Shown in pieces: positions 10,354-39,324 of a stretch of 64,000 bases of DNA. The stretch is from an uncultured Clostridia bacterium. GTDB lineage: Bacteria; Bacillota; Clostridia; Oscillospirales; CAG-272. The stretch spans positions 57,879-121,878 of the forward strand of contig CALWJT010000037.1 in assembly GCA_944381075.1 (NCBI GenBank), in the 5' to 3' direction. The notes under the pieces are model-generated. The model did not search any database, was not told where the DNA came from, and was given only the letters and a program-made list of their open reading frames with translations. The number at the start of each line of letters is the position of its first letter. Position 1 is the stretch's first letter. A program made the translations under genes and the position numbers.

Positions 10354-10376
10354 GGGCAAGGCTGCTGGAGGCAAGT

Positions 10377-13299: not shown

Positions 13300-13583
13300 A
13301 TCATTTTTATGAAGTTTAAAAGCTGTGACCGGAAAGAGTAGGATATCGGAACGCGCATAGAGAGTTATCGGCAGGTGGAAGATAACCGCAAGTAGGATAT
13401 TTGAAGTACGCTCCGCGAGCTTTGCGCCGAACCGGCGGATACCGGACAAGGCGCAACGGGGAAGACCGTTATATCAAAAGCATGAAGCTTCATGCTTGCA
13501 GAGTCCGTATGCGCGAGCGTGCGGTAAAACAAGGTGGTAACGCGGATATTTCGCCCTCGTACAAGATGTGCGGGGGCGTTTTT
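13300..13583 (+). promoter_or_regulatory. T-box leader (tRNA-sensing transcription attenuator); specifier ambiguous, UAC (Tyr) is the best candidate
   Basis: Stem I base AAAGCT/AGCTTT, K-turn GTGA, AGAGAG bulge (13369-74), distal loop GGTGGAA, T-box motif AACAAGGTGGTAACGCGG (13528-45), terminator CGCCCTCG..CGGGGGCG+TTTTT (13552-83). The specifier-loop 3' side is UUUGAAGUACGC (13400-11). Confidence 0.85.
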
Positions 13584-14586: not shown

Positions 14587-14589
14587 GGA

Positions 14590-15498: not shown

Positions 15499-16279
15499 AA
15501 ACGTCACGAAGACCTTCAATCCCGGTACGGTGAACGAAAAGATCGCGCTCAAAAATCTCAATTTGCTGCTAAACGACGGGGACTTTGTCACGGTTATCGG
15601 CGGGAACGGAGCCGGAAAATCGACGATGCTCAATGCGATTGCAGGCGTCTGGAAGCCGGATGAGGGGCAGATCCTCATCGACGGCGTCGACGTGACGGGA
15701 ATGGTGGAATACAAGCGCGCTAAATTTCTCGGCCGCGTTTTTCAGGACCCGATGCTCGGTACGGCGGCGGACATGGAGATCGAAGAAAATCTCGCTCTTG
15801 CAGTAAGGCGCGGAAGGAGACGCGGCCTTGGCTGGGGGATCCGCAGCTCGGAACGTGAAAAGTACAAAGAGCTGCTGGCTGAGCTGGGACTGGGTCTCGA
15901 GCATCGTCTTACGAGCAAGGTGGGCCTGCTTTCCGGCGGACAGCGGCAGGCGGTGACGCTGCTTATGGCGACGCTGAACCGTCCGAAGCTGCTGCTCTTG
16001 GATGAGCATACGGCGGCGCTGGATCCTGCAACGGCGGCGAAGGTCATGTCGCTGACAGACCGCATCATCGACGAGGAGCATTTGACGGCGCTGATGGTCA
16101 CGCATAACATGCAGGACGCGATCACGCATGGAAACCGGCTCATTATGATGCATGAGGGGGGTATCATCTTCGATATATCCGGCGAGGAAAAAAGGAAGCT
16201 GACCATTGAGGACCTGCTCGACCGGTTCCGCAAGCTCAGCGGGACACAGTTTGCAAACGACCGCGCATTGCTGAATTGA
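15476..16279 (+). CDS. ABC transporter ATP-binding protein
   Basis: Walker A GGNGAGKST, signature LSGGQRQ, Walker B LLLLDEHTAALD. Overlaps the permease end. Confidence 0.9.
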   Translation: MAEMLELKNVTKTFNPGTVNEKIALKNLNLLLNDGDFVTVIGGNGAGKSTMLNAIAGVWKPDEGQILIDGVDVTGMVEYKRAKFLGRVFQDPMLGTAADMEIEENLALAVRRGRRRGLGWGIRSSEREKYKELLAELGLGLEHRLTSKVGLLSGGQRQAVTLLMATLNRPKLLLLDEHTAALDPATAAKVMSLTDRIIDEEHLTALMVTHNMQDAITHGNRLIMMHEGGIIFDISGEEKRKLTIEDLLDRFRKLSGTQFANDRALLN

Positions 16280-18856: not shown

Positions 18857-21367
18857 TCAGCCTTCAGAAAGACCGAATTTTTTTGCCGCATCCTCGCGCA
18901 TTTTATATTTGAGGATCTTACCCGCTGCGTTCATCGGGAAGCTGTCCACGAAATCGACATAACGGGGGACCTTGTGTCTTGCCATGCTGGAGGCGACATA
19001 AGCTTTGATTTCCTCCTCCGTCGCGGTTTCGCCGTCGCGCAGGACGATGCACGCCATGATTTCCTCTCCATAGCGCTTGTCCGGAACCCCGATGACCTGC
19101 ACGTCCTTGACCTTGGGATACGTGTAGAGGAATTCCTCAATTTCCTTGGGATAGATGTTCTCGCCGCCGCGGATGATCATATCCTTGAGCCGTCCCGTGA
19201 TCCGGTAGCTGCCGTCCGGCGTGCGGCAGGCGAGATCTCCGGTATGCAGCCAGCCGTCTTTGTCAATAACGGCAGCGGTAGCGGACGGCATTTTGTAATA
19301 GCCCTTCATCACGTTGTAGCCGCGTGCGACAAACTCGCCGTTTGTACCGTCCGGCGCATCGAGCCCGGTTTCGGGATCTACGATCTTGCATTCCACATGC
19401 GGAAACGCATAGCCGACGGTTTCGCATCGGATGTCGAGCGGATCATCGAGCTCCGTCATGGTACAGCCGGGCGAGGACTCGGTCTGCCCATATACGCTGA
19501 CGATCCCTCTCATGTTCATTTCATCGGGCTGCGCCGCACGGCGCATGAGGTCCGCCGGACAGTTGGAGCCTGCCATGATGCCGGTACGCATATAGGAAAA
19601 GTCCGTTTTGCGGTAGTCCTCATGATTCATCATTGCGATGAACATCGTCGGCACGCCATGGAAGCAGGTGATATGCTCGTCGTTCACGCAGGCGAGCGAG
19701 GATTTCGGAGAAAAATAGGGAAGCGGCAGGACCGTCGCGCCATGCGTCATCGCGGCCGTCATCGCGAGCACCATTCCAAAGCAGTGGAACATCGGCACCT
19801 GGATCATCATGCGGTCCGCGGTAGAAAGGTCCATGCGGTCGCCGATACATTTCCCGTTGTTGACGACGTTGTAATGGGTGAGCATCACGCCTTTAGGAAA
19901 GCCGGTCGTGCCGGACGTATACTGCATGTTGCAGACATCCTGCGGGGATACCTTGGCGGCCATGGCGGCAACGGCTTCCGCCGAAACGCCCGTACTGCGC
20001 CGGAGCGCCTCCTCCCATGTCATGCAGCCCTTCTGGCGGAAGCCAACGGTGATGACGTTGCGCAGAAAGGGGAGCCTTTTTGCGTGGAGCGGTTCCATCG
20101 GCGCTTTTTTTTCAAGCTCCGGACAAAGCTCCGCTATGATCCCTGCATAATTGGAGTCACGCCATCCTTCGATCATGATAAGCGTATGCGTATCTGACTG
20201 ACGCAGCAGATATTCCGCCTCATGGATTTTGTAGGCCGTGTTGACTGTGACCAGCACCGCGCCGATTTTGGTCGTTGCCCAGAACGCGATATACCACTGA
20301 GGCAGATTGGTTGCCCATACCGCGACATGGGAGCCTGCGCGCACGCCCATGTCGACAAGCGCGCGGGCGAAGGTATCCACGTCGTCGCGGAACTGCGCAT
20401 AGGTGCGCGTATAGTCGAGTGTCGTGTATTTGAAGGCATACTGATCGGGAAATTCCTCGACGAGCCGGTCGAGCACCTCGGAAAAGGTAAGGTCGACGAG
20501 CGCCTCCTTCTGCCAGATGAATTTTCCGGTGTGCAGCTTGTTTTCATAGAGCTTTTTTTCCGCCCGCTCGCGGGTCCGGTAACGAGACATGTAGCTTGTG
20601 TAGTGCAGAAGGATGATGTCCATGTCGGTCATGTCGGGCATCCAAGCGGGGTCCCATTCCAGGGAGAGAAATCCGTCGTAGTTGATGGAGCGAAGTGCCA
20701 GCATCATGTCGTCCAAGGGCAGGGTACCTTCGCCGACGAGACGGTATTCCGCTTTGCCGCCGACCATCTCCGAATCCTTGAGGTGGACATGCCTGATATA
20801 AGCGCCGAGATTTTTCAGCGAGACCTCCGCGGACTCACCTGCCTTACGAAAGGTATGGTGCATATCCCAGAGCGCACCGAGGCTGTCGCAGGCGAAGCGG
20901 TCGAGCATCTGCATGAGCCTCGCTGTGTCCGCATAAATTCCGACGGTTTCGAGCAGCAGCGTGACACCTTTCTGTTCTGCCTCCGGCACAAGTGCTTTCA
21001 GATACCGATAGACGGTATCCTCTGTTTTTGGTACGTCTGTCCCGCAGGCGCGGATCCGCACATAGGGAATTTTCAGACTTGCCGCCGTCTCGATACAGGC
21101 GGCGATTTCCGTCGCGGTCACATCAAATTCCGCGGGGTCTCCGATATCGCATACGGAGTCGATGCAGGGGACGGAAAGCCCCATTTCCTGCAGGTTCCGA
21201 TAGGTGGCGCGCACCATATTTTGATCGAATACCGCGTTTTTTCCGGTAAACGTCGGATTGTGGATGTCGTGGATCTCGATTCCCTCATAGCCCAAGTCGC
21301 GGGCCTTCTCTAAATAATCCCCCCATTCGGGAAGATTCCATCCTTTGGTGGAAAATGAAAATTTCAT
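18857..21367 (-). CDS. fusion protein: N-terminal xylose-isomerase-like TIM barrel (sugar-phosphate isomerase/epimerase family) + C-terminal AMP-forming acyl-CoA synthetase/ligase
   Basis: aa 1-~265: MKFSFSTKGW...YEGIEIH...LLLETVG...LWDMHHT...HVHLKD...FLSLEWD (AP_endonuc_2-type barrel). aa ~300-836: YTSGTTGFPKGVMLTH, GYYKMP, HTGDLA..DGSYRITGRLKDMIIRGGENIYPKEIE, GKILK (ANL superfamily A3-A10 motifs). Confidence 0.85.
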   Translation of the reverse strand: MKFSFSTKGWNLPEWGDYLEKARDLGYEGIEIHDIHNPTFTGKNAVFDQNMVRATYRNLQEMGLSVPCIDSVCDIGDPAEFDVTATEIAACIETAASLKIPYVRIRACGTDVPKTEDTVYRYLKALVPEAEQKGVTLLLETVGIYADTARLMQMLDRFACDSLGALWDMHHTFRKAGESAEVSLKNLGAYIRHVHLKDSEMVGGKAEYRLVGEGTLPLDDMMLALRSINYDGFLSLEWDPAWMPDMTDMDIILLHYTSYMSRYRTRERAEKKLYENKLHTGKFIWQKEALVDLTFSEVLDRLVEEFPDQYAFKYTTLDYTRTYAQFRDDVDTFARALVDMGVRAGSHVAVWATNLPQWYIAFWATTKIGAVLVTVNTAYKIHEAEYLLRQSDTHTLIMIEGWRDSNYAGIIAELCPELEKKAPMEPLHAKRLPFLRNVITVGFRQKGCMTWEEALRRSTGVSAEAVAAMAAKVSPQDVCNMQYTSGTTGFPKGVMLTHYNVVNNGKCIGDRMDLSTADRMMIQVPMFHCFGMVLAMTAAMTHGATVLPLPYFSPKSSLACVNDEHITCFHGVPTMFIAMMNHEDYRKTDFSYMRTGIMAGSNCPADLMRRAAQPDEMNMRGIVSVYGQTESSPGCTMTELDDPLDIRCETVGYAFPHVECKIVDPETGLDAPDGTNGEFVARGYNVMKGYYKMPSATAAVIDKDGWLHTGDLACRTPDGSYRITGRLKDMIIRGGENIYPKEIEEFLYTYPKVKDVQVIGVPDKRYGEEIMACIVLRDGETATEEEIKAYVASSMARHKVPRYVDFVDSFPMNAAGKILKYKMREDAAKKFGLSEG

Positions 21368-21386: not shown

Positions 21387-22787
21387 TTAAATATTCTCTT
21401 CGTATGCGATCTTGTTGAGGGCGTTCACATATGCGCGGATGCTCGAACCGATGATATCCGTGGAAATCCCGTTCCCAGAGTAAAGCTTTCCGTTCTGGCG
21501 GAGTCTTACGAGCGCCGCGCCCATTGCCTCCTTGCCCTCGGTGACGGACCGGATCTGAAAATCGTCCAGCTCATATTTGATGCCGATGATTTTGTCCACC
21601 GCGAGGAAGGCGGCGTCGATCGGACCATGGCCGGAGGAGACCCCCTCAAGGATTTCGCCGTTTTTTTCCATTTTGATATAAGCGGTGGAGGAGATCCCGC
21701 TGCCGTTGGTGACAAGGAAGCCGAGCAGCCGATACGTATCGGGGACCTGGAGGGCGACGGCGGCGATGATCGCCTCCAGCTCCACGGCGCCGACGCTTTT
21801 GCCTGACGCCGTGCTCACGACGGATTCATATACCCTTTCCATGTCCTCGTCGGAAAGATCGTATCCGAGCTTTCGGACAGCGGCGGAAACCGCTGTGATA
21901 TCGTCCCCTTCGCCTAAGGCTGAAATGTCGTTTTCGCTGTCAGGCGCCGGCATCCGGACGGCGGGCGCGTCTGCGAATTTTGCGACCAAGCCAAGCGCGC
22001 GCAGCGCACGATGGATCTCCGTCATCCGGATGCCGCAGGAAAGCCCCATATCCTCCCCGCGCGTGCGCAGGATCCCCGCGATATCGTGCAGATCGGGCGC
22101 GGCGCCCGCGCCGCCGACGGCGACCGCGGCACCCGCGGCGCCGGCGCGGAGCGCGGAGATGGTGCAGGCGGCAGCGAGCGTGATTTCATCGGAGCATTGT
22201 ACTTCGAGCGGAATGTCGGCGAGTGCCGGAACCTTTTCGATGAGCTTTTCGACGAAGGCGGACAATTCCTCCGGCATCATGGTGCCGGCGCTGTCGCATA
22301 CAAGGATTTTGGCGGCTCCTGCTGAAATGGCGGTATCGATTGCCTTTGCAAGGTAGGCAAATTCGCTTCTGGTGGCATCTTCTGCGGCAAAAACGACATG
22401 ATCTGTGTGGCTTTTCGCCTGACTCACGAGCTCGGCTATCATTTCAAGGACAGCTTCCGGCTTTTTTCCGCATCGATATTCCATTCCTACGGCAGAGGTC
22501 GGCGCGGCGATAAAAAGCTCCGGCTTTTCGGCGGTACATATGGCGTTCCATGCCTCGTCGACAGACGACGCCGTATAGCCTGACGGCAGGGAAAGCGTAC
22601 TGTCCGATACGACGGCGGCGATGGTTTTCACCGCCATGGTGTCCGGCTTTGAATCCCGGATGGCGGGCAGTCGGATCGCGTCGAGTCCGATCCTGTCGAG
22701 CACCTTTGCGATCTCGACCTTTTCTCTAAGGGAAAGGGAATTTCCCATTTCATAAAGTGTAATGTCGGTAAATGTAACTTTTTTCAT
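21387..22787 (-). CDS. LeuA-like protein (HMGL-like barrel + LeuA allosteric/dimerisation domain) with degenerate catalytic motifs
   Basis: Start MKKVTFTDITLYEMGN with RBS GGAGG. The overall IPMS layout and C-terminal LeuA_dimer domain (GHGPIDAAFLAVDKIIG...SVTEGKEAMGAALVRLRQNGKLYSGNGISTDIIGSSIRAYVNALNKI) are kept. DTTLRDGEQ is replaced by DITLYEMGN and the HxH metal motif by QCS. The track ORF start at 22931 runs into the T-box. Confidence 0.8.
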   Translation of the reverse strand: MKKVTFTDITLYEMGNSLSLREKVEIAKVLDRIGLDAIRLPAIRDSKPDTMAVKTIAAVVSDSTLSLPSGYTASSVDEAWNAICTAEKPELFIAAPTSAVGMEYRCGKKPEAVLEMIAELVSQAKSHTDHVVFAAEDATRSEFAYLAKAIDTAISAGAAKILVCDSAGTMMPEELSAFVEKLIEKVPALADIPLEVQCSDEITLAAACTISALRAGAAGAAVAVGGAGAAPDLHDIAGILRTRGEDMGLSCGIRMTEIHRALRALGLVAKFADAPAVRMPAPDSENDISALGEGDDITAVSAAVRKLGYDLSDEDMERVYESVVSTASGKSVGAVELEAIIAAVALQVPDTYRLLGFLVTNGSGISSTAYIKMEKNGEILEGVSSGHGPIDAAFLAVDKIIGIKYELDDFQIRSVTEGKEAMGAALVRLRQNGKLYSGNGISTDIIGSSIRAYVNALNKIAYEENI

Positions 22788-22815: not shown

Positions 22816-23110
22816 TCAAAAAGTCGCCCCTGTGAAGAATCACAGGGACGACAAATTTCATCTGTTCGCGGTACCACCCCGATTACCGTCCAAAAGAACG
22901 GTCTCTCGATCCGATTCGGCGAGGAACTCATCCTCGTTTAAATCGGTGCAGCTGTAACGGGTGCGCCCGTAGCCTCCTACTTTCGTTTTTTCAGAGACTC
23001 CGCTCCGGAACGAGACTGTACCTGCTTCCGCCGCCGCCTGCTCTCACCGACCGCAGGCTCTCTGGATGCCGTAAAGCTGCACATAATTCCATCGTCGCGT
23101 TTTTGTATAC
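22816..23110 (-). promoter_or_regulatory. T-box leader, leucine specifier (CUC)
   Basis: On the minus strand: AGAGAG (23063-58), distal loop GGTGAGA, T-box motif AATCGGGGTGGTACCGCG (22884-67), terminator GTCGTCCCTGTG..CACAGGGGCGAC+TTTTT (22852-16). Specifier loop is ..ACAGU-CUC-G (CUC = 23014-12), followed by UUCC pairing with GGAA (23090-87). Confidence 0.85.
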
Positions 23111-23118
23111 TATTTTCA

Positions 23119-23147
23119 ACTATATCAGAAAATTTGATGTTTGTCAA
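23119..23147 (-). promoter_or_regulatory. consensus sigma-A promoter of the Leu T-box operon
   Basis: Minus strand: TTGACA (23147-42), 17 nt spacer, TGaTATAGT (-10 at 23124-19). Confidence 0.65.
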
Positions 23148-23233: not shown

Positions 23234-24028
23234 TTACTGTTTTGGTCCAAAGAGCCGTTCAAAGTTGCCGGCAAAGTACATTTCATATTCTTTTTCGGAA
23301 AGGCCGAAGGCTTTTACCCGTTCAAGCTCGCCTGTGGCGTTCCAGATCGGGAAGTCCGTTCCGAAAAAGAAACGGTCGATCCCGAATTTGTCAAACATGG
23401 AAAGGGCATAGTCGCGGGAGATAAACATCGTGGAGCTCGAGGTATCGAACCAGAGCCTGTCGGACGGCTCCAGCACGTCATGCGCCTCTTTCCAGCGCCG
23501 GTAGCCTCCGAAATGCGCTGCAATGACGGTAAGGTCCGGGATTTTTCTCATGACGGCGGCGAGCTTTGCGGGCGATGACGCTTCATACCGGTCGTCCCCC
23601 ATGTGCATGAGGATCGGGAGTCCGCGCTTTGCGATCGCACGGTAAAGAGGAAACCGTTTTTCGTCGTCGATATCGAATTTCTGAAAATCGGGATGCAGCT
23701 TGACGCCGCGAAGTCCGAGGCAGATCGCGCGGTCGAGCTCTTCTTCAAAATTCGGATAATCGGGATGGATGGAGGCAAGTGCCGTCATGCAGTCGTGGCT
23801 CCGAATGACCTGCGCCATGAAATCCGTGATCGTTTCAGTCTGCTCCGGCGTGACTGCGGCAGAGCAGACGAGAAAATGGGAAATGCCGGCAGCTTTTCCG
23901 TCTGCCAGCAGATTCGTGACGGAAGCCGGCGCGCAGTAGCGCATGTCGTAAAAGCCTCCGATGGATTTGGAGACCTTTTCTGCGATTTTATCGGGAAAAA
24001 TATGCGTGTGAGCGTCTATGATTTTCAT
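23234..24028 (-). CDS. amidohydrolase-2 family metal-dependent hydrolase (TIM barrel, COG2159-like)
   Basis: MKIIDAHTHIFPDKI (HxH metal site), ...GVKLHPDFQ...ILMHMGD...AAHFGG...FGTDFP are typical Amidohydro_2 motifs. Own promoter TTGCCA-17-TATAAT (24141-24113, minus strand). Confidence 0.8.
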   Translation of the reverse strand: MKIIDAHTHIFPDKIAEKVSKSIGGFYDMRYCAPASVTNLLADGKAAGISHFLVCSAAVTPEQTETITDFMAQVIRSHDCMTALASIHPDYPNFEEELDRAICLGLRGVKLHPDFQKFDIDDEKRFPLYRAIAKRGLPILMHMGDDRYEASSPAKLAAVMRKIPDLTVIAAHFGGYRRWKEAHDVLEPSDRLWFDTSSSTMFISRDYALSMFDKFGIDRFFFGTDFPIWNATGELERVKAFGLSEKEYEMYFAGNFERLFGPKQ

Positions 24029-24286: not shown

Positions 24287-24315
24287 TTGACAAACCGGCA
24301 GAACTGTGATATAGT
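24287..24315 (+). promoter_or_regulatory. consensus sigma-A promoter of the Ile T-box operon
   Basis: TTGACA (24287-92), 17 nt spacer, TGaTATAGT (-10 at 24310-15). Confidence 0.65.
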
Positions 24316-24321
24316 CATCAA

Positions 24322-24596
24322 TAACAAGCAAAAGCTGTGACGGAGAGGATCCGAATACGATGCTTTCAGAGAGCCGGTGGCAGGTGAGAACCGGCAGCGG
24401 AGGATTCAGGCGGTCTATCGCTCCCGAGCTGGAATCGTGAAAATCGCGTGCGATGAAGTAGCGCTTCCCGTGATTGCTGCGTCAAGGCATGGGACTTGTC
24501 GGAGTCCGAGAGGGGCGGTCAGATGGCCGCAATTTGAGTGGTACCGCGGATGTATATTTACACCCGTCTCAAAGAGATTGAGACGGGTGTTTTTTG
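24322..24596 (+). promoter_or_regulatory. T-box leader, isoleucine specifier (AUC)
   Basis: Base stem AGCT/AGCT, K-turn GTGA (24337-40), AGAGAG (24368-73), distal loop GGTGAGA, T-box motif AATTTGAGTGGTACCGCGG (24531-49), terminator ACACCCGTCTC..GAGACGGGTGT+TTTTTT (24560-96). Specifier loop is ..GGUCU-AUC-G (24417-20), then CUCC pairing with GGAG (24342-45). Confidence 0.85.
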
Positions 24597-24676
24597 TTTA
24601 TAGCGCCCGTCCGGAACCTTATATTTTTATTTATCTAAGCTCCGCGACCGACGCGCGGAGGGAAAGGTTGAGCAAA

Positions 24677-26953
24677 ATGGACGCAAAAACACAGACCATG
24701 TCGGGGCAGCTTTTGGAAATTGCCGAGCGCATTCGGGAGATGCGGCGGGTATCGGGCTTTTCTGAGGAGGAAATGGCGCAAAAAACGGATACCTCGCTCG
24801 CCGAATACCGTCAGTATGAGGCGGGGGCTTTGGATTTTCCTTTTACCTTTATCCATAAGTGCGCGATCGCCTTCGGCATCAGCATCGCGGATATCCTGGA
24901 AGGGGAGAGCCCGAAGCTTTCTTCCTATATGGTGACAAGAAAAGGCGAAGGGCAGCAGACGGCGAGGGAGGACGGCATCAGCATCCAAAACTTGGCGCCG
25001 CTGTTCCGCGGAAAGCTGGCAGAGCCGTACTGGGTACGGTACGAGTATTCGGAGGAGCTGCAGCACCGGCCGATCCATTTGACGACGCATTCCGGCCAGG
25101 AATTTGACATCGTGCTTTCCGGAAAGCTCAAGGTCCAGGTCGGCTCCAATACGGAGATCCTGAACGAGGGGGACAGCATCTTCTATGATTCCTCCACCCC
25201 CCACGGCATGATCGCCGTAGACGGTCAGGACTGCTGCTTCTGCGCCGTCGTCATTCCCGGCGAGAGTACGCCGGAACGGGAGATCCGGGACAGTGTGGTC
25301 TCTGCCCGGCGCGTAGAAAAGCTCGTCTGCAGCAAATTCATCGAAACCGTCGAGGACGAGAACGGAACGCCGCTTGAGATCCGTTATAAGGATCAGGAGC
25401 ACTTCAACTTCGCGTTCGATATCGTCGATGAGATCGCCGCCAAATATCCGGATAAAACGGCGATGGTCCATCTGGACCGCGACAAAAACGAAAGGCGCTT
25501 TACTTTTGCGGACATGAAGCGTGCTTCTTCCCAGTGCGCGAATTATTTCAAATCGCTCGGCATCCGGAAAGGCGACCGTGTGATGCTGGTCCTCAAGCGC
25601 CACTATGCGTTCTGGTTCGCGATCCTCGGCCTGCATAAGCTCGGCGCGATCGCGGTCCCCGCTACCAATCTTTTGAAGGACCATGATTTTGTGTATCGCT
25701 TCAACGCGGCCGGCATTTCCGCTATTCTTTGTACAGCGGACGGCGACGTGGCGGAGCAGGTCGAGCTTGCCGAGCGGGAGTCCCCGACGCTGAAAACAAA
25801 AATTCTTGTCGGCGGTACGCGCGACGGCTGGCATGATTTTGACAGCAGCTACAGCCTGTTTTCCGGAAAGTTCGCACGCGGCGAGGACGCGCCCTGCGGC
25901 TCGGATACGATGCTGATGTTCTTTACCTCCGGCACGACCGGCTATCCGAAAATCGCCGCGCACAGCTATACATATCCCTTAGCGCATTTCGCTACGGCAA
26001 AATACTGGCATTCGGTGGATTCCGACGGCCTGCACTTTACCATTTCCGATACGGGCTGGGGAAAGGCGCTCTGGGGCAAGCTCTACGGACAGTGGCTCTG
26101 CGAGGGCGCGGTGTTTACCTATGATTTCGACCGCTTCCATGCCGCCGATATCCTGCCGCTGTTTGCGAAATATCATATCACGACGTTCTGTGCGCCTCCG
26201 ACCATGTACCGCATGATGATCAAGGAGGATATCTCCAAATACGATTTCAGCTCGGTCAAACGGGCGACGACGGCAGGGGAGGCGCTCAATCCGGAAGTAT
26301 TCCTCCAGTTTGAAAAGGCGACGGGGCTCAAGCTCATGGAAGGCTTCGGCCAGACGGAAACCACGCTTACCATTGCCAATCTGACGGGGACGACCCACAA
26401 GCTCGGCGCAATGGGAAAGCCGGTCCCGCCCTATCAGATCGAATTGCTGTCACCGGACGGCAAACCGGTCGCGGACGGCGAAACGGGAGAGATCTGCATT
26501 CGCGCGGAAGAGGGCAATCTCCCGTGCGGACTGTTCCAAGGCTATTGGGGCGAGCCGGAGAAAACGGCGGAGGTTTGGCACGACGGCTATTATCATACGA
26601 GAGACGTCGCATGGCGGGATGAGGAGGGCTCTTTTTGGTACGTCGGCCGCAGCGACGACGTCATCAAATCCTCCGGCTACCGCATCGGACCATTTGAGAT
26701 CGAGAGCGTTATCATGGAGCTTCCGTATGTGCTGGAGTGCGGCGTTTCCGCGGCGCCGGACGAGGTCCGCGGACAGGTCGTCAAGGCGAGCGTCGTCCTG
26801 ACGAAGGGAACCGAGCCGTCCGAAGCGCTGAAAAAAGAAATTCAGGAATACGTCAAGGAAAAGACCGCGCCGTATAAATATCCCCGCATCGTCGTGTTCC
26901 GTGATGAGCTGCCGAAAACCATCAGCGGAAAGATTATCCGCAATCAGCTGTGA
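24677..26953 (+). CDS. fusion protein: XRE-type HTH + cupin domain + AMP-forming (medium-chain/ACSM-like) acyl-CoA synthetase
   Basis: Start MDAKTQTMSGQLLEIAERIREMRRVSGFSEEEMAQKT (HTH_3) with RBS GGAGGGAAAGG. Cupin: HSGQEFDIVLSGKLKV..G.....L.EGDSIFYDSSTPHG. ANL motifs: FFTSGTTGYPK, GYWG.PEKT, YHTRDVA, GRSDDVIKSSGYRIGPFEIES, PKTISGKI. The track ORF (from 24377) reads through the T-box. Confidence 0.85.
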   Translation: MDAKTQTMSGQLLEIAERIREMRRVSGFSEEEMAQKTDTSLAEYRQYEAGALDFPFTFIHKCAIAFGISIADILEGESPKLSSYMVTRKGEGQQTAREDGISIQNLAPLFRGKLAEPYWVRYEYSEELQHRPIHLTTHSGQEFDIVLSGKLKVQVGSNTEILNEGDSIFYDSSTPHGMIAVDGQDCCFCAVVIPGESTPEREIRDSVVSARRVEKLVCSKFIETVEDENGTPLEIRYKDQEHFNFAFDIVDEIAAKYPDKTAMVHLDRDKNERRFTFADMKRASSQCANYFKSLGIRKGDRVMLVLKRHYAFWFAILGLHKLGAIAVPATNLLKDHDFVYRFNAAGISAILCTADGDVAEQVELAERESPTLKTKILVGGTRDGWHDFDSSYSLFSGKFARGEDAPCGSDTMLMFFTSGTTGYPKIAAHSYTYPLAHFATAKYWHSVDSDGLHFTISDTGWGKALWGKLYGQWLCEGAVFTYDFDRFHAADILPLFAKYHITTFCAPPTMYRMMIKEDISKYDFSSVKRATTAGEALNPEVFLQFEKATGLKLMEGFGQTETTLTIANLTGTTHKLGAMGKPVPPYQIELLSPDGKPVADGETGEICIRAEEGNLPCGLFQGYWGEPEKTAEVWHDGYYHTRDVAWRDEEGSFWYVGRSDDVIKSSGYRIGPFEIESVIMELPYVLECGVSAAPDEVRGQVVKASVVLTKGTEPSEALKKEIQEYVKEKTAPYKYPRIVVFRDELPKTISGKIIRNQL

Positions 26954-26973
26954 TCCCGCAAGGAGGGCTTTTC

Positions 26974-27654
26974 GTGAATATTTCTCGCGTGACATTGTTC
27001 GCCGGCCACTATGGAAGCGGCAAAACCAATATTGCGGTAAATTATGCGGAATACCTTGCAGCGCTGGGATATCCTGTAACGATTGCGGACCTTGATATCG
27101 TCAATCCCTATTTCCGCACGTCAGACAGCGAGGCGGAGCTTGCCGCCCGCGGCATACGGCTGCTTCGTCCCGTTTATGCGAATACCAATCTCGATCTTCC
27201 GGCACTGCCGGCGGAGATGTACGATGTCGTACGGGATACCGACCGGTTTGCGGTGCTGGATATCGGCGGAGACGACAGGGGCGCATATGCGCTGGGAAGG
27301 TATGCCCCTTCTATTCTCGAGGAAAATCGTTATGAAATGCTGTTCGTCGCGAATTTTTACCGTCCGCTGACAAGAGATGCGGGAGCGGCGCTCGAGGTGA
27401 TGCGGGAGATCGAATGTGCCTGCGGCATCCGTTTTACCGCGCTTGTCAACAACTCCAACCTTGGAGAAGAAACGACGCCGGAGGCGGTGCTGGAAACGGC
27501 GCCGGAGATCGAGCGGCTTTCCGGCATGTGCGGGCTTCCCGTCAAAATGACGACGGTGCGCCGGAGACTCGTTCCGGCGCTTGCGGACAGCGTGCGGCAT
27601 TTATTTGCGCTGGACCTTCAGAAAAAATATTTTGAATCATTTCCATCCGCTTAA
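26974..27654 (+). CDS. P-loop NTPase (SIMIBI class, MinD/ParA/CooC-like) of unknown role
   Basis: GTG start 6 nt after AAGGAGGG. Walker A FAGHYGSGKTNIAVN, Walker B-like AVLDIGGDD. Embedded between the ligase and the oxidoreductase genes. Confidence 0.7.
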   Translation: MNISRVTLFAGHYGSGKTNIAVNYAEYLAALGYPVTIADLDIVNPYFRTSDSEAELAARGIRLLRPVYANTNLDLPALPAEMYDVVRDTDRFAVLDIGGDDRGAYALGRYAPSILEENRYEMLFVANFYRPLTRDAGAALEVMREIECACGIRFTALVNNSNLGEETTPEAVLETAPEIERLSGMCGLPVKMTTVRRRLVPALADSVRHLFALDLQKKYFESFPSA

Positions 27655-27689
27655 AAACGGATGTCTGATAGGAAGGAGATCAAAAACCG

Positions 27690-27896
27690 ATGGCAAAGCT
27701 TACGTTTCAAACGGACCTCTGCAAGGGCTGCGGACTGTGCGTGGACGCCTGTCCGAAAAAAATCCTTGCGCTGGCAAAGGGCAAGATCAACAAAAAAGGA
27801 CACAATCCGGTCGAGGTAATCGACGAAAGTCTCTGTATCGGATGCGCTTTCTGCGCGACGATGTGTCCGGACTGCATCATTACGGTCGAAAAATAA
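27690..27896 (+). CDS. 2x[4Fe-4S] ferredoxin, delta subunit of 2-oxoacid:ferredoxin oxidoreductase
   Basis: 68 aa with CKGCGLCVDACP and CIGCAFCATMCP cluster motifs. Confidence 0.85.
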   Translation: MAKLTFQTDLCKGCGLCVDACPKKILALAKGKINKKGHNPVEVIDESLCIGCAFCATMCPDCIITVEK

Positions 27897-27941
27897 AATA
27901 TACCGCTTTCCGGTTCATGCCGGAGGCTATGGAGGTTAAGT

Positions 27942-29006
27942 ATGGCAGAAAAAGTTTTGATGAAAGGGAATGAGGCGATCGCCGAGGCGGCAATCGCCGC
28001 CGGGTGCCGCCATTATTACGGATATCCGATCACGCCTCAGACGGAGATCGCCGCCTATATGGCGAAGCGCATGCCAAAGATAGGAGGCGTGTTCCTTCAG
28101 GCGGAAAGCGAGATTGCCGCCATCAACATGGTGTATGGGACCGCGTCGGCGGGATACCGCGTCATGACGTCCTCGTCGAGTCCCGGCATATCGCTCAAAT
28201 CCGAGGGACTGTCCTACATCGCAGGAAGCGATCTGCCCTCTCTTGTTGTCAACGTACAGCGCGGCGGTCCGGGTCTTGGAAGCATCCAGCCTGGGCAGTC
28301 CGATTATTTTCAGGCGACCAAGGGCGGAGGACACGGCGACTATCATATGATCGTGCTGGCGCCTGCGTCCGTGCAGGAGATGGCGAGCCTGACGGTAAAG
28401 GGGTTCGATCTTGCGGACAAATACCGCATGACGTCTATGATTCTTGCCGACGGAACCATGGGGCAGATGATGGAGCCGGTGTCCTTTGAACATATCGAAG
28501 TCAAGACCTATGACAAGCCGTGGGCGCTGACAGGCACGCGGGGGAAGCGGAAGCATAACATCATTACCTCACTTTCCCTTGTTCCCAAGGAGCTGGAGGA
28601 ATGGAATTTCTCCCGTTATGAAAGATATCGCCTCATTGAAGAGAACGAGGTGATGTACGAGGAATTCATGATGGAGGACGCAGAGGTCTGCATCGTCGCG
28701 TTCGGCATTTCCGCGCGCGTGTCGCAGAATGCGATCCGCATGGCGCGGGCCAAGGGTATACGCGCGGGGATGATCCGTCCTATCACGCTCTGGCCGTTCC
28801 CGAAAGCGCCGCTTGCCAAGGCTGCGGACAAGGTACGCGCGTTTATCAGCGTTGAGCTTTCCATGGGACAGATGATCGAGGACGTCGAGCTTGCAACAAG
28901 ATGCAAAAGGCCGGTGCTCCTCTGCAACCGGGTGGGCGGCATGATTCCTTCGCCGGAATCGGTGCTCGCAAAGATCGAAGAAGCGATGGGAGGCGACAGA
29001 ACATGA
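27942..29006 (+). CDS. 2-oxoacid:ferredoxin oxidoreductase alpha subunit (VorB/KorA type, ~350 aa)
   Basis: MAEKVLMKGNEAIAEAAI.AGC..YYGYPITPQTEI... and ...GGPGLGSIQP.QSDY are canonical for the alpha subunit. Confidence 0.9.
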   Translation: MAEKVLMKGNEAIAEAAIAAGCRHYYGYPITPQTEIAAYMAKRMPKIGGVFLQAESEIAAINMVYGTASAGYRVMTSSSSPGISLKSEGLSYIAGSDLPSLVVNVQRGGPGLGSIQPGQSDYFQATKGGGHGDYHMIVLAPASVQEMASLTVKGFDLADKYRMTSMILADGTMGQMMEPVSFEHIEVKTYDKPWALTGTRGKRKHNIITSLSLVPKELEEWNFSRYERYRLIEENEVMYEEFMMEDAEVCIVAFGISARVSQNAIRMARAKGIRAGMIRPITLWPFPKAPLAKAADKVRAFISVELSMGQMIEDVELATRCKRPVLLCNRVGGMIPSPESVLAKIEEAMGGDRT

Positions 29007-29773
29007 TCGTATTTGAAAAACCGAAGGCGCTGACCGACGCGCCGCTGCATTATTGTCCGGGCTGCACGCACGGGATCATCCACAGGCTGGTCGCCGAAGC
29101 GATCGATTCGCTCGGCATCGAGGGGATCACCGTCGGCGTAGCACCGGTCGGCTGCGCGGTGTTCGCCTACAACTACTTTTCCTGTGATATGGTCGAAGCC
29201 GCGCATGGACGTGCGCCGGCGGTCGCGACGGGACTCAAGCGCGCGGAGCCGGAGAATATCATTTTTACCTATCAGGGCGACGGTGACCTTGCCTCCATTG
29301 GCATGGCGGAAACCGTGCATGCCGCTGCGAGAAACGAGAACATCACCATTGTTTTTGTCAACAATGCAATCTACGGGATGACGGGCGGACAGATGGCGCC
29401 GACCTCGCTTCCCGGTCAGGTCACACAAACATCTCCTTACGGACGCGATACGTCGGTCTGCGGATTTCCTGTGCGCGTGTGCGAGATGCTCTCTCAGGTG
29501 GACGGCGCCGAATACATCGAGCGCGTCGCCGTCAATAACGTGAAAAACGTCAAGAACGCTGGACGCGCGATCAAAAAGGCGTTTGAAAATCAGATCAACA
29601 AAAAGGGATTTTCCTTGATAGAGGTGATCTCCTCCTGTCCTACCAACTGGGGGCTCACGCCGCAGAAGGCGCTGGAATGGGTAGAGGAAAAAATGATCCC
29701 GTATTATCCGCTCGGCGTATATAAGGACCGCAGCGCCGGATTTGTTTACGGAAAGGAGGGCGCGGCAAGATGA
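29003..29773 (+). CDS. 2-oxoacid:ferredoxin oxidoreductase beta subunit (TPP-binding)
   Basis: Start MIVFEKPKALTD.PLHYCPGCTHG (ATGA overlap with alpha). GDGD...NN..YGMTGGQ TPP motif. The track ORF start at 28901 is an upstream extension. Confidence 0.9.
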   Translation: MIVFEKPKALTDAPLHYCPGCTHGIIHRLVAEAIDSLGIEGITVGVAPVGCAVFAYNYFSCDMVEAAHGRAPAVATGLKRAEPENIIFTYQGDGDLASIGMAETVHAAARNENITIVFVNNAIYGMTGGQMAPTSLPGQVTQTSPYGRDTSVCGFPVRVCEMLSQVDGAEYIERVAVNNVKNVKNAGRAIKKAFENQINKKGFSLIEVISSCPTNWGLTPQKALEWVEEKMIPYYPLGVYKDRSAGFVYGKEGAAR

Positions 29774-30306
29774 GCACGACACAGATTTTGATCGCCGGCT
29801 TCGGCGGACAGGGCGTTCTGTTCGCCGGGAAATTCCTTGCTTATAAAGGGATGCTGGAGGAAAAGCAGATCAGCTGGCTGCCGTCCTATGGGCCGGAGAT
29901 GCGCGGCGGAACGGCAAATTGCAGCGTTATTGTCAGTGACACGCCGGTCGGCTCTCCGATTGTCACGGAACCGGATGTGCTTGTGGCGATGAATCTGCCT
30001 TCCTTCGATAAATATGAAAACGACACGGTCAAGGGAGGACTGATTCTTGTCGACAGCTCCCTGATCGAACGAAAAGCCGTTCGAGAGGACGTCAGCGTAT
30101 TTTACATACCGGCGACCCGAATGGCGCAGGAAGCGGGTTTTCCCACGCTTGCCAATATGATCTTGGTGGGCAAGCTGCTGCGCGAGTGTCCGGAGATGGG
30201 ATACGAAAATACCGAGGCCGCGCTCAAAAAGGTAGTTTCCGCCAAGCATATGGATCTTTTTGATTTGAATCTGAAGGCGATCGACATGGGGTATCGTTTT
30301 GCTTGA
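29770..30306 (+). CDS. 2-oxoacid:ferredoxin oxidoreductase gamma subunit
   Basis: [17 protein letters not shown]........[24 protein letters not shown] is the gamma-subunit signature. 4-nt overlap with beta. Confidence 0.9.
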
Positions 30307-30316
30307 ACGCTGATTG

Positions 30317-30354
30317 AAAGCTGTCCCGCACAGAATTGCGGGACAGCTTTTTTG
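30317..30354 (+). terminator. intrinsic terminator of the Ile T-box operon
   Basis: AAAGCTGTCCCGCA-CAGAAT-TGCGGGACAGCTTT+TTTTG. Confidence 0.85.
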
Positions 30355-36259: not shown

Positions 36260-37033
36260 TCAGTTGCCGCATTCGACGCTGATTTCATTGAACAGTCCCA
36301 GCAGATCGGAAACGGTCGTTTCCTCTTTCCTCTTGCCGGAGCGGTCGAGGACGATCTGCCCCTTGTGCATCATCAAAAGACGGGTTCCGTATTCGACGGC
36401 ATAGCGAAGGTTGTGCGTTACCATGATCGCGGTAATGTGCTTTTCGCGGACGATCCTGTCGGTCAGGGCCATGATGATTTCCGCCGTTTTCGGGTCGAGA
36501 GCGGCGGTATGCTCGTCAAGGATCAGAAAATCGATAGGCGTCATCGTGGACATCAGCAGCGCTACCGCCTGCCGTTGCCCGCCGGAGAGAGCGCCTGCCT
36601 TGACGTGAAGCTTGTCTTCCAGTCCCAGCCCCAGAACGGCAAGCTGTTCCCGATAAGCATCGATCCTTGCCTTGTCGACGCCTCTGGCAAGGCCGTATGA
36701 CCTGCCCTTGTTGTCGGCGAGCGACAGATTCTCCAGAATAGTGAGCGTCGGGCAGGTCCCCAGCGCCGGGTTCTGATAGACTCGCCCGATGCTTGCGTAG
36801 CGCTTGTATTCGGGAACTTTGGTGATATCCTTTCCTCCGATGAGAATCTGACCCTTTTCTACGGGGATGGAACCGCAGATGATGTTCAGCATGGAGGTTT
36901 TTCCGCTGCCGTTGGAGCCGACAACGGAAACAAATTCTCCATCGGCGACGATAAGACCGAAATCGCGGAAAAGCGTCATTTCCGTGATTTCGCCGGGATT
37001 ATAGATTTTGGTAATGCCGCGGAGCTCAAGCAT
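36260..37033 (-). CDS. ABC transporter ATP-binding protein (operon 2)
   Basis: MLELRGITKIYNPG..., GSNGSGKTS, LSGGQRQ, FLILDEHTAALD. The start overlaps the permease stop (ATGCTTGA). Confidence 0.9.
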   Translation of the reverse strand: MLELRGITKIYNPGEITEMTLFRDFGLIVADGEFVSVVGSNGSGKTSMLNIICGSIPVEKGQILIGGKDITKVPEYKRYASIGRVYQNPALGTCPTLTILENLSLADNKGRSYGLARGVDKARIDAYREQLAVLGLGLEDKLHVKAGALSGGQRQAVALLMSTMTPIDFLILDEHTAALDPKTAEIIMALTDRIVREKHITAIMVTHNLRYAVEYGTRLLMMHKGQIVLDRSGKRKEETTVSDLLGLFNEISVECGN

Positions 37034-37985
37034 GAGGCAGCCCTCCCTTCTTTTCCGCACGGGAACGCCGGCTGAGAAACGCGGAAATTTTTCCGTTGAA
37101 GATGAGGATCAGCATGAACATGACGGCATTCCAGAGCTTTAGATAGATCCCGTCGCTGTCCACGAGCACAAGGTAATTGAGACACAGGGAATAAAAAACG
37201 GATCCGAAAATGACCGAGGTGGTCCCCTTCATAAAGCGAAGTCCGGAGAATACGGCAAGCCCGATGATGACGGAGGCTAGCGCCTGTACGACCTTCCCGC
37301 TGCCGGAGGTGTTGTCGTACTGCGTATAGAGCTGCGCGTAGAGCGCGCCGGATACGGCGGTAAATCCGTTGGCAATGGCAATCCCGAGGATCTTGTACGT
37401 CCCGGCATCGCGTCCGAGGGAGACGACGAGCTTTTCGTTGTCTCCTGTCGCGCGAAGCAGGTATCCCATTTTGGTTTTCAGGAAAAGATCGACAATTATT
37501 TTCAGCACGACTACGATGAGAATGAGAATGATAAGAATGGCGTAATCCTTTGTGCCTTCTCCAAGCCACCTTTCAAGAAAGGTATTGTCGAACAGCCCTT
37601 CAAGGCTTTCGCTGCGATAGGAAAAAATCGTCGTGGTATAGCCGTTCTGCGTCAAAAGCTTTGTCAGAGCGAGATTGACGGAAAGAAGCGCTGTCATGAC
37701 GATGATGCCGGAGAGCAGCTTCGAGATCCGAAAGCGGACATGGAGCAGTCCCGTGACCGTTCCCGCGAGCATGCCGACAAAAAAGGAGAGAAAGACAGCG
37801 AGCAGCGGCGGCAGCCCGAGCCGCAGCATGAAAATGGTGCAACATACACCGCCGAGCGGAAAGGTCCCGTCGACGGAAAGGTCTGGAAAATCCAGAATGG
37901 AATAGGAAATATAGACGCCAAGGGCGAGAACGGCAAAGCAAAGTCCCATTTGCAGACCGTCGATGGTGGTACCGAGAAAAAGCAT
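37026..37985 (-). CDS. ABC transporter permease (operon 2)
   Basis: Polytopic protein, paralogous to 14590..15498 (LGVYISYSILDFPDLSVDGTF...). Confidence 0.85.
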   Translation of the reverse strand: MLFLGTTIDGLQMGLCFAVLALGVYISYSILDFPDLSVDGTFPLGGVCCTIFMLRLGLPPLLAVFLSFFVGMLAGTVTGLLHVRFRISKLLSGIIVMTALLSVNLALTKLLTQNGYTTTIFSYRSESLEGLFDNTFLERWLGEGTKDYAILIILILIVVVLKIIVDLFLKTKMGYLLRATGDNEKLVVSLGRDAGTYKILGIAIANGFTAVSGALYAQLYTQYDNTSGSGKVVQALASVIIGLAVFSGLRFMKGTTSVIFGSVFYSLCLNYLVLVDSDGIYLKLWNAVMFMLILIFNGKISAFLSRRSRAEKKGGLPHA

Positions 37986-38044
37986 GGAAAAATCCTTTCA
38001 AAATCTAATAAGGCAAATTGGAACGGCAGATATCCCGTTTCGGA

Positions 38045-39001
38045 TCATTCTGCGACGTCCGTCGCGTCGATGGTATCGGGCACGGTGAGTCCGAGCAGCT
38101 CGCATACCTCGCTGTTGTAGTAGTTGGCAGGTTCGGTGATGACGGAGACCGGGATCTCCGAGGCGCTCTTGCCGCCCAGAATTTCCGCGGCGGCTTTGCC
38201 TGCGGCACGGCCGACATCGATGTAATCGATGGAGGCGCTTGCAGCGCAGCCAACCTTCACCTGTTCGATCTCCGAGCCGAATACCGGGATTTTATGATCG
38301 TTTGTGATGGGAAGAATGTTGGTTTCCAGTTTGCCGACGATGGTATTGTCGAGCAGATTGACAAAGCAGTCAACGCCGCGGTCGATAAGCTCATTGGTCT
38401 TGGTGTCGATGGTAGTGATGTCCGATACCGCGCTGTCGAGAATCTGCATGCCCGCATAGGCTTCCGCCGCCTTTTTGAGCTGCTCTACCTGGAACGGAGA
38501 GCTGGATTCTTCTGTGGAATATAGGACACCGATGGTAAGGTCGGTTTTGCCCATGAAGGCTGTAACGACCTCGAGCTGCTTTTCAAAATTCGGGATATCG
38601 GAGGAGCCGGTGAGATTTTCATAATTTTCCATTGTCGTGCTGTCGGTCACGGCGCAGTAAACGACGGGGACTTTGCCGTCCGCCGCGTTCGCCGCAGCAA
38701 CAGCGGAGGGCGTCGCGATAGCAATGATGACGGCCGCCTGCTTATTGACGAACGTATTGGCCTGTGACTGTGAGACGCTGGCGTCAAAATTGCTGTTGAG
38801 GTATTCGACGGTATAGGCATCCAGATCGATGCCGCTTTCCTCAAGGCCAGCCATAACGCCGTCGTAGCAGTTGTTGAGCGAGCCGTGCGAACCGAACTGG
38901 ATGATGCCGATGACAGGCTTTTCGCTGCCGCACGAGGAAAGAGCGGAAAGAGCAGTGAGCAAAAGGGCTGCCGAAAGCAGCAGGGAAATGATTTTTTTCA
39001 T
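38045..39001 (-). CDS. ABC transporter substrate-binding lipoprotein (COG2984 family, operon 2)
   Basis: MKKIISLLLSAALLLTALSALSSCGSEKP has a lipobox. Paralog of 13618..14586. The track ORF start at 39058 is an extension. Confidence 0.85.
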   Translation of the reverse strand: MKKIISLLLSAALLLTALSALSSCGSEKPVIGIIQFGSHGSLNNCYDGVMAGLEESGIDLDAYTVEYLNSNFDASVSQSQANTFVNKQAAVIIAIATPSAVAAANAADGKVPVVYCAVTDSTTMENYENLTGSSDIPNFEKQLEVVTAFMGKTDLTIGVLYSTEESSSPFQVEQLKKAAEAYAGMQILDSAVSDITTIDTKTNELIDRGVDCFVNLLDNTIVGKLETNILPITNDHKIPVFGSEIEQVKVGCAASASIDYIDVGRAAGKAAAEILGGKSASEIPVSVITEPANYYNSEVCELLGLTVPDTIDATDVAE

Positions 39002-39042
39002 GGAAGAGACCTTCTTTCGTTGGAATTTGAATTGAATCGAGA

Positions 39043-39324
39043 AAATAAAAAAGCCCAAGCATCGAATCGATGCTTGGGACGAATTTCAAAAGAGAGAAAT
39101 CCGCGGTACCACCCAAATGAACTTGGTGTTCGCTCTGTTCGCATACCCATGATATGCGGCGCGCAGGATAACGGAAGCGCACTCCGTCGGAGCCTACTTG
39201 CGGTTGGCGTTCGGTCCGCCCTCAAAAGCCCATTCGCGTCCTTATACCTGCCGCAATCCCACCGCCTGCGGCTCTCTTGGAAGGAGAAGGGGACGTTACT
39301 CTTCTTTCTCAACGGTTTGGATTA
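39043..39324 (-). promoter_or_regulatory. T-box leader, tryptophan specifier (UGG)
   Basis: Minus strand: GAAGAGTA, AGAGAG (39278-73), distal loop GGTGGGA, specifier loop CGAA-UGG-G (UGG = 39232-30) flanked by helices CGTCC/GGACG and GAAAG/CTTTT, T-box motif CATTTGGGTGGTACCGCGG (39119-01), terminator CCCAAGCATCGA..TCGATGCTTGGG+TTTTTT (39080-43). Confidence 0.85.

Follow-up and report, generated by a model that had tools for sequence, protein, structure and literature searches.

A T-box with an isoleucine specifier precedes genes for an acyl-CoA ligase and a 2-oxoacid:ferredoxin oxidoreductase, a candidate isoleucine salvage operon in an uncultured Clostridia bacterium

We analyzed a 64,000-nucleotide stretch (hereafter the window) of contig CALWJT010000037.1 (positions 57,879 to 121,878 of the forward strand, assembly GCA_944381075.1), which belongs to an uncultured Clostridia bacterium of the Oscillospirales (lineage CAG-272). 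Between window positions 24287 and 30354 lies an operon in which a promoter and a T-box leader with an isoleucine (Ile) specifier codon are followed by six co-directional genes with intergenic gaps of -4 to 45 nt. These encode an AMP-forming acyl-CoA synthetase with an N-terminal helix-turn-helix (HTH)-cupin extension (ligase 1, gene lig1), a P-loop protein, and the ferredoxin-like delta, alpha, beta and gamma subunits of a 2-oxoacid:ferredoxin oxidoreductase. All features of the operon lie on the plus strand. T-boxes switch genes on when their cognate tRNA is uncharged, and the operon places an oxidoreductase that would otherwise be annotated as catabolic behind an amino acid starvation switch.

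The operon opens with a sigma-70-type promoter with an extended -10 element (TTGACA-17-TGaTATAGT, 24287-24315), which matches the consensus at 11 of 12 positions and carries the TG extension. The orthologous leaders that we inspected show CTTGACAA as -35 element and a TGn -10 element, at the same spacing to Stem I as in the window. The Rfam T-box model RF00230 matched 24328-24574 over its full length (model positions 1-219) with 93.7 bits (gathering score 93; E = 3.1e-19), covering Stem I, Stem II, Stem IIA/B, Stem III and the antiterminator. Orthologous leaders scored 95-105 bits with the same model. Our own covariance model (CM) of Stem I matched 24330-24431 with 86.7 bits (E = 1.4e-17). The hallmarks of Stem I can be read directly from the sequence: the K-turn GTGA (24337-24340), GGAG (24342-24345) pairing with CTCC (24421-24424), AGAGAG (24368-24373) and GGTGAGA (24383-24389). 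K-turn, specifier loop and the distal AGAGA/GGUGNRA motifs are kept across the leader alignments of relatives.

The 3' half of the leader contains the elements of a transcriptional switch. The conserved T-box sequence, AATTTGAGTGGTACCGCGG (also written AAUUUGAGUGGUACCGCGG), lies at 24531-24549 by sequence and CM alignment, where it presents a UGGU bulge and forms the 5' strand of the antiterminator. In T-boxes this bulge pairs with the NCCA 3' end of the tRNA; the window itself contains no tRNA genes and hence offers no discriminator base for comparison with the bulge. An intrinsic terminator follows at 24560-24596, consisting of a 13-bp stem (24560-24590) and a U-tract, and it is present in the minimum free energy (MFE) fold of the leader. 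In the CM alignment the 5' arm of the terminator overlaps the 3' strand of the antiterminator, the common segment being CCCGUCUCA, and the two structures are mutually exclusive.

The specifier codon of the leader is AUC (24417-24419), which is followed by G 24420 and by the 3' strand CUCC (24421-24424) of the closing helix. In the RF00230 alignment AUC and the following G fall at the specifier positions with high posterior probability. Relatives of the operon were found by a scan for the ligase in one genome per species, which gave at least 587 confirmed stretches among 185,579 species genomes. We examined 80 of these loci, and all counts per locus given below refer to them. The Stem-I CM was built from 39 leaders of all three kinds encountered (Ile, valine (Val) and leucine (Leu)) and searched in the window plus the 80 loci (81 sources). 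It returned 160 matches at E <= 1e-3, the best 150 of which were aligned, with the specifier taken as the triplet one base 5' of the closing helix. In this alignment AUC stands in all 71 leaders before lig1. All 44 leaders before a second ligase gene, lig2, carry a Val codon (GUA in 38, GUC in 6), and all 18 before a LeuA-like gene carry a Leu codon (CUC in 13, CUG in 5). Sixteen more Stem-I matches read Val or Leu in loci that end before the downstream gene. RF00230, applied to 20 short loci, gave AUC before lig1, GUA before one lig2 and CUC before one LeuA-like gene.

The register of these readings is set by the closing helix. Its positions are paired to 99.8%, with compensatory changes in four of four pairs, figures that lean towards the model to which the alignment was fitted; when the partner strand is slid by 1-3 columns, pairing falls to 27-45%. 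In lig1 leaders AUC is preceded by C or U and followed by A, C or G. Shifted registers are excluded, since AUC alone stays invariant while its neighbours vary. One base further 5' the leaders would read CAU or UAU, which specify different amino acids, and the covarying helix fixes the register against this. One base further 3' they would read UCN (Ser) and leave no spacer base before the helix. The initial annotation had named AUC plus a purine as the Ile specifier on the basis of a fold made by hand, within a leader that it described as having a consensus promoter, all T-box hallmarks and a terminator, and it had listed six tightly packed genes closed by a strong terminator. All of these features were recovered, both covariance models agree on the codon, and no lig1 leader in the alignment carries a codon for another amino acid.

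The leader thus resembles the Ile-class T-boxes of Firmicutes (RF00230; ileS and ilv genes) in its K-turn Stem I, its distal AGAGA/GGUGNRA platform, Stems II, IIA/B and III, the 14-nt T-box sequence with UGGN bulge, the competing terminator and antiterminator, and the codon AUC. Unlike them, it regulates an acyl-CoA ligase and a ferredoxin-dependent oxidoreductase instead of a synthetase, a transporter or the classical ilv genes. Two further differences concern the orthologues of the window, in which a C frequently follows the specifier and in which up to three T-boxes of differing specificity are strung along one cluster.

Ligase 1 (24677-26953, 758 amino acids (aa)) was delimited by domain searches and independent gene calls. 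It combines an XRE-type HTH domain (aa 14-77), a cupin domain (aa 137-190; Cupin_2) and an AMP-forming acyl-CoA synthetase (aa 219-756) that matched PF00501 (AMP-binding) with 215 bits and PF13193 (AMP-binding_C) with 82 bits. The catalytic part is similar end to end, over aa 219-756, to MacsMa of Methanosarcina acetivorans (PDB 3ETC; 645 bits, E = 9e-193), at an identity of about 58% as estimated by eye from the alignment. Residue Trp259 of MacsMa aligns with the conserved W444 of ligase 1, and the SGWGK/TGWGK motif is conserved as well. Ligase 1 therefore has both AMP-binding domains, the end-to-end similarity and the pocket Trp of a MacsMa-type synthetase. MacsMa prefers 2-methylbutyrate, the only substrate that it fully converts to the CoA thioester, and Trp259 is critical for the enzyme (PMC10455477). 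Because of this preference and the Ile T-box upstream, we predict that ligase 1 is a 2-methylbutyrate-CoA ligase; the substrate favoured by MacsMa is the one that the specifier would lead one to expect. MacsMa differs in lacking the XRE-HTH and cupin extension of about 215 aa, whereas the window ligase is bacterial and T-box-controlled. The best NCBIfam family for ligase 1 is MbcS (NF047394), to which it is related without being a member (417.5 bits against an equivalog cutoff of 850). MbcS, the methylbutyryl-CoA synthetase of Staphylococcus aureus, is likewise an AMP-forming ligase for short branched acids, but it feeds fatty acid primers and is unlinked to an oxidoreductase or a T-box.

The gene behind the ligase encodes a P-loop NTPase of the SIMIBI class (26974-27654, 226 aa, Walker A motif GHYGSGKT). 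Sequence searches gave only weak matches (CbiA, MinD/ParA). An AlphaFold2 (AF2) model (mean predicted local distance difference test score (pLDDT) 84.9) found its best folds among ATPase-type HypB and signal recognition particle (SRP) GTPases at template modelling (TM) scores of 0.5-0.6, and the modelled protein folds as a SIMIBI-class NTPase. A NifH-like role in electron transfer is unlikely since the protein has no conserved Cys. The P-loop gene accompanies the oxidoreductase in every locus long enough to show it.

The remaining four genes encode the oxidoreductase. The ferredoxin or delta subunit (27690-27896, 68 aa) has two [4Fe-4S] clusters predicted from two CxxCxxCxxxCP motifs, matches the Fer4 families, and has as its best NCBIfam match the delta subunit of 2-oxoglutarate:ferredoxin oxidoreductase (OGOR). 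The alpha subunit (27942-29006) carries POR_N and PFOR_II domains. The beta subunit (29003-29773, 256 aa), whose start overlaps the alpha stop codon (ATGA), carries the thiamine pyrophosphate (TPP)-binding TPP_enzyme_C domain, and the gamma subunit (29770-30306) carries PF01558 (POR). All four subunits of such an enzyme are thus encoded together, with the beta and gamma genes confirmed by gene calls. The alpha subunit scored 538 bits with NCBIfam NF005507, the 'VorB' subfamily (cutoff 399), and its nearest PDB entries are 1YD7, 8YS5 and 6N2N. An intrinsic terminator with a 15-bp stem and a T-run (30316-30351) closes the operon, and a separate consensus promoter lies 3' of it.

Relatives of the operon occur in gut and rumen Oscillospiraceae, Acutalibacteraceae, Ruminococcus, Erysipelotrichaceae and similar groups. 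After the ligase gene or genes, the order P-loop-ferredoxin-alpha-beta-gamma is kept in every locus long enough to show it, and the order ligase(s)-P-loop-ferredoxin-alpha-beta-gamma, with or without a terminal ilvE, was found in 52 of the 52 loci that reach the gamma gene, across several Clostridia families and Erysipelotrichaceae. The ilvE gene, which encodes a class IV branched-chain aminotransferase (481 bits with the ilvE equivalog model, cutoff 307), is part of the cluster in 43 loci, usually right after the gamma gene or else before the P-loop gene. In 74 of the 80 loci the sequence AGTGGTACCGCG precedes lig1 by about 100 nt; a second copy lies between lig1 and lig2. The lig2 gene, a second HTH-cupin::ligase fusion, stands between lig1 and the P-loop gene in about 50 loci. 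All 47 full-length lig2 copies form a clade of their own in a neighbour-joining tree, to the exclusion of all first-position ligases, and wherever the leader of a lig2 gene could be read, it was a Val T-box. In most two-ligase loci this Val T-box has its own promoter-like site (for example L003, 10266-10587). About 30 of the 80 loci further contain an adjoining module of a LeuA-like gene and a third ligase gene, lig3. Specifier and ligase family are thus paired one to one.

Several individual loci deserve mention. In L042, L066 and L077 lig1 directly follows lig3 without an Ile T-box and would consequently fall under the upstream Leu switch. L056 has a group II intron fragment (30-95) at the expected leader site. 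In L041 a second T-box (10339-10560) lies directly before the P-loop and oxidoreductase genes without a second ligase; it reads GCA, or UGC in the other register, neither of which is a Val or Ile codon. L047 carries the same cluster of T-box, ligase and oxidoreductase on a contig of a Sphaerochaetaceae (Spirochaetota) metagenome-assembled genome, which may reflect horizontal transfer or a binning error.

The two HTH-cupin ligase families differ chiefly outside their catalytic domain. The window ligase shares about 70% identity with the lig1 clade and about 63% with the Val-associated lig2 clade. Thirteen positions, each at least 90% conserved per group, separate lig1 from lig2, and 12 of them lie in the HTH-cupin part (aa 12-195), which suggests that the N-terminal domain carries paralogue-specific sensing. 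Around the promoters of 70 Ile leaders we found no conserved palindrome that could serve as an operator for the HTH domain, only A/T tracts. The sole separating position in the catalytic domain is residue 462 in the TGWGK motif, a Gly in lig1 and MacsMa and an Ala in lig2. Ala at this position may shrink the pocket by the one methyl group that distinguishes 2-methylbutyrate from isobutyrate.

Taking these observations together, we propose, with a probability of roughly three in four, that the window operon is controlled by a tRNA-Ile-specific transcription-attenuation T-box and serves the salvage of isoleucine from exogenous 2-methylbutyrate, an acid formed by fermentation in the gut. As long as tRNA-Ile is charged, the leader terminator would form and transcription would stop. 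Uncharged tRNA-Ile would pair with AUC in Stem I through its anticodon GAU, and its free 3' end would pair with the UGGU bulge, stabilising the antiterminator and allowing RNA polymerase to enter the operon. The MacsMa-type ligase would then convert 2-methylbutyrate to 2-methylbutyryl-CoA with ATP. AMP-forming ligases spend ATP to commit a free acid to its CoA ester in an effectively irreversible step, and 2-oxoacid:ferredoxin oxidoreductases are reversible. Running in reverse with reduced ferredoxin and CO2, the four-subunit oxidoreductase would carboxylate 2-methylbutyryl-CoA to 2-oxo-3-methylvalerate, from which a branched-chain aminotransferase would form isoleucine. That last enzyme lies inside the operon in most relatives and would be encoded elsewhere in the genome from which the window comes. 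The window would represent the single-ligase, Ile-only version of the system, with tRNA-Ile controlling the entire oxidoreductase.

From this arrangement we infer which substrates the enzymes use, in which direction the oxidoreductase runs and that the operon is induced in vivo. Comparative genomics lends the metabolic interpretation strong support: one chain of reactions from 2-methylbutyrate to Ile would account for the Ile sensor, the MacsMa-type ligase, the oxidoreductase, the ilvE gene of relatives and the sister Val and Leu sensors. Ligase and oxidoreductase, two parts of the reductive carboxylation pathway, are present in the window operon, and ilvE is present in the operon of 43 related loci. 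The chemistry has precedents. An archaeal anabolic 2-oxoisovalerate:ferredoxin oxidoreductase (VOR) exists in Methanothermobacter. Labelling work on rumen anaerobes (Robinson & Allison 1969; Allison & Peel 1971; Allison et al. 1966, as cited in PMC7356843 and PMC2812497) showed that these organisms combine 2-methylbutyrate, isobutyrate and isovalerate with CO2 to make Ile, Val and Leu. The route proposed here shares with that work the sequence of acid, acyl-CoA, 2-oxoacid and amino acid as well as the gut and rumen habitat. The 1966-1971 studies consist of labelling and physiology without genes or regulation, to which the window locus adds candidate genes and a regulatory logic.

A number of observations weigh against this proposal. 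On the side of the RNA, the Rfam score of the window leader barely exceeds the gathering score. The base following a T-box specifier is usually a conserved purine, and this rule is only partly kept in the 71 Ile leaders, where AUC is followed by A in 38, C in 26 and G in 7. The Ile T-box is absent from 6 of the 80 loci. On the side of the enzymes, homology cannot establish the substrate of the oxidoreductase: the alpha subunit fails the archaeal VOR alpha equivalog NF006232 (62.6 against 646 bits), the beta subunit scores 64 against a cutoff of 405 on NF008818, and the solved structures nearest to alpha are those of a generic Pyrococcus 2-ketoacid enzyme and of 2-oxoglutarate synthases. The term 'VOR-type', used in the initial annotation, therefore holds for the 'VorB' subfamily model and not for the archaeal equivalogs, and should be read as a label only. 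No ilvE gene was found in the window operon or anywhere else in its 64 kb, and the scheme gives no role to the P-loop protein or to the HTH-cupin domain.

The layout of the two-ligase relatives also counts against a simple version of the proposal. In these loci the terminator of the Val T-box separates lig1 from the oxidoreductase, as in L003. Because this terminator lies between lig1 and the shared oxidoreductase genes, transcripts from the Ile promoter meet a second checkpoint, and Ile starvation alone may fail to induce the oxidoreductase. In such loci the ligase is the amino acid-specific gate, and formally it is the Val switch that governs the oxidoreductase. A direct wiring of the salvage route to tRNA-Ile charging, as first suggested for the window, consequently fits single-ligase variants such as the window itself but does not extend to the two-ligase relatives.

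Among other explanations, the one that survives best has the Ile-gated ligase activate propionate, with the oxidoreductase acting as a 2-oxobutyrate synthase that feeds ilvBNCDE in place of threonine deaminase or citramalate synthase. An Ile T-box would fit this route too, since 2-oxobutyrate is likewise a precursor specific to Ile; propionate is abundant in the gut, and clostridia have been reported to form Ile by reductive carboxylation of propionate. The lack of ilvE in the window operon points the same way. The enzymology is divided: MacsMa-family enzymes do adenylate propionate, but MacsMa finishes the CoA thioester with 2-methylbutyrate only (PMC10455477). The gene neighbourhoods of relatives are harder to reconcile with propionate. 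There a Val-gated paralogous ligase uses the same oxidoreductase, and a Val route makes sense only as the conversion of isobutyrate to 2-oxoisovalerate. Furthermore, the position of ilvE, which in the 43 loci usually comes directly after the oxidoreductase, suggests direct transamination of the oxidoreductase product, and ilvBNCD are absent from the examined clusters. We therefore regard a propionate route as unlikely.

Slightly less probable still is a role in lipid synthesis, in which 2-methylbutyryl-CoA primes anteiso fatty acids, the oxidoreductase works oxidatively, and the T-box triggers scavenging of the acid so as to spare Ile or its keto acid. The closest parallel is Pfor4 of C. thermocellum (Clo1313_1353-1356), which uses all three branched 2-oxoacids in vivo and whose deletion abolishes all branched fatty acids (PMC13011478). 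The window oxidoreductase shares with Pfor4, as with the archaeal VOR, the order ferredoxin(delta)-alpha-beta-gamma, the domain set and the reversible TPP/[4Fe-4S] chemistry. MbcS, the best NCBIfam match of the ligase, supplies primers in S. aureus (PMC13041820). Pfor4 is described as running oxidatively, whereas the ATP-spending ligase, the ilvE gene of relatives and the starvation switch argue for the reductive direction at the window locus. An oxidative enzyme induced during Ile starvation would destroy an Ile precursor, and both the co-transcription of ilvE in the 43 loci and the presence of three aminoacyl-tRNA sensors, one per ligase, fit amino acid synthesis; a lipid role leaves the tRNA gating and ilvE unexplained. 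The two roles are compatible, and it is plausible that one acyl-CoA pool could serve both.

It is more doubtful again that the oxidoreductase is a 2-oxoglutarate or pyruvate enzyme that is merely co-transcribed, so that the ligase alone, or neither, would be related to Ile. The structures 8YS5 and 6N2N, two of the nearest to alpha, are 2-oxoglutarate synthases, the delta subunit is closest to that of OGOR, and the substrate is not assignable by homology; yet none of the 52 loci extending to the gamma gene departs from the gene order, and there would be no reason to gate a 2-oxoglutarate or pyruvate enzyme by tRNA-Ile and tRNA-Val. That the leader is a degenerate T-box or one of another specificity, with AUC a coincidence of register, can be dismissed for practical purposes: a score just over the gathering threshold, a non-purine after the codon in 37% of orthologues and the readable UCN (Ser) one base downstream are outweighed by the invariance of AUC in 71 of 71 leaders amid varying neighbours, by a helix register fixed by covariation, by orthologues that reach 105 bits, and by sister leaders that give Val and Leu codons in the same register.

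Next to the salvage operon, on the minus strand, the window carries a divergent Leu module. A promoter (23147-23119) and a T-box with specifier CUC (23104-22841; Stem-I model match 23000-23102), identified with Rfam and a promoter search, together span 22841-23147. They precede a LeuA homologue (21387-22787) that, by domain and motif inspection, lacks the catalytic RDGEQ and HxH motifs and retains the LeuA_dimer regulatory domain; 28 LeuA-like orthologues have likewise lost these motifs. The following gene (18857-21367), assigned by domain searches, encodes a fusion of a xylose isomerase-like TIM barrel with an AMP-forming ligase (836 aa, ligase 3). The lig3 module is possibly an isovalerate/Leu arm equipped with a Leu-sensing pseudoenzyme. 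Between the two T-box modules lies an Amidohydrolase_2 (PF04909) gene (23234-24028, minus strand) with its own promoter (24143-24115), and in about 10 related loci PF04909 homologues are neighbours of the lig3 module. Reversible metal-dependent decarboxylases are among the members of this family.

Other features of the window lie apart from these modules. A T-box at 13316-13561 (plus strand, 106 bits) is located upstream of a TrpX-like ATP-binding cassette (ABC) transporter (13618-16279). Its specificity is ambiguous, since the CM places ACG (Thr) at the specifier, with a C after it, and the register one base 5' gives UAC (Tyr) followed by G. Another T-box (39072-39321, minus strand) reads UGG (Trp) and precedes genes for a second TrpX-like substrate-binding protein and ABC transporter (36260-39058). 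The window also contains a bacterial large SRP RNA (4380-4647, plus strand, 174 bits) and, in what appears to be a strict anaerobe, a manganese catalase-like open reading frame (PF05067; 16398-16991, minus strand).

Viewed across relatives, the arrangement has the features of a modular system in which lig1 would serve Ile, lig2 Val and lig3 Leu, each behind its own T-box and with one oxidoreductase common to all. We lean, by a narrow measure, towards the broader view that several hundred species of gut and rumen Clostridia use such a demand-gated salvage, in which one T-box per branched-chain amino acid controls a cognate ligase for 2-methylbutyrate, isobutyrate or isovalerate, and a shared oxidoreductase working in reverse together with IlvE completes the synthesis. 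This system would be the long-missing genetic basis for the requirement for, and assimilation of, branched-chain volatile fatty acids by fibre-degrading anaerobes. The HTH-cupin domains of lig1 and lig2 and, beside lig3, the catalytically dead LeuA with its Leu-binding regulatory domain may add protein-level feedback by the end products, an idea with which the clustering of the lig1/lig2-separating residues in the HTH-cupin part is consistent.

Both the chemistry and the RNA class were known before; the assignment of genes and the gating by T-boxes, amino acid by amino acid, appear to be new and constitute a well-supported prediction. In the full-text literature that we searched we found neither a T-box on such an operon nor the three-sensor layout, an earlier mention in Vitreschak 2008 or Gutierrez-Preciado 2009 being possible. 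The T-box surveys of Wels 2008 and Sun 2013 do not mention such genes, and none of the literature searched names bacterial genes or regulation for the conversion of branched-chain volatile fatty acids to branched-chain amino acids.

If the proposal holds, a pathway known from labelling in the 1960s gains gene candidates. Branched-chain volatile fatty acids are classic growth factors of rumen cellulolytic bacteria and are fed to dairy cattle. The specifier codon acts as a built-in label that names the amino acid served by each ligase, and three paralogous ligases and one oxidoreductase therefore become candidates that can be tested directly in hundreds of species from gut and rumen. A natural experiment in substrate discrimination is offered by the pairs of Ile and Val ligase paralogues, for example at G462 versus Ala. 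T-box control would here extend to a CO2-fixing, ferredoxin-dependent enzyme, and metabolic models and auxotrophy predictions for gut Clostridia would have to include T-box-gated salvage.

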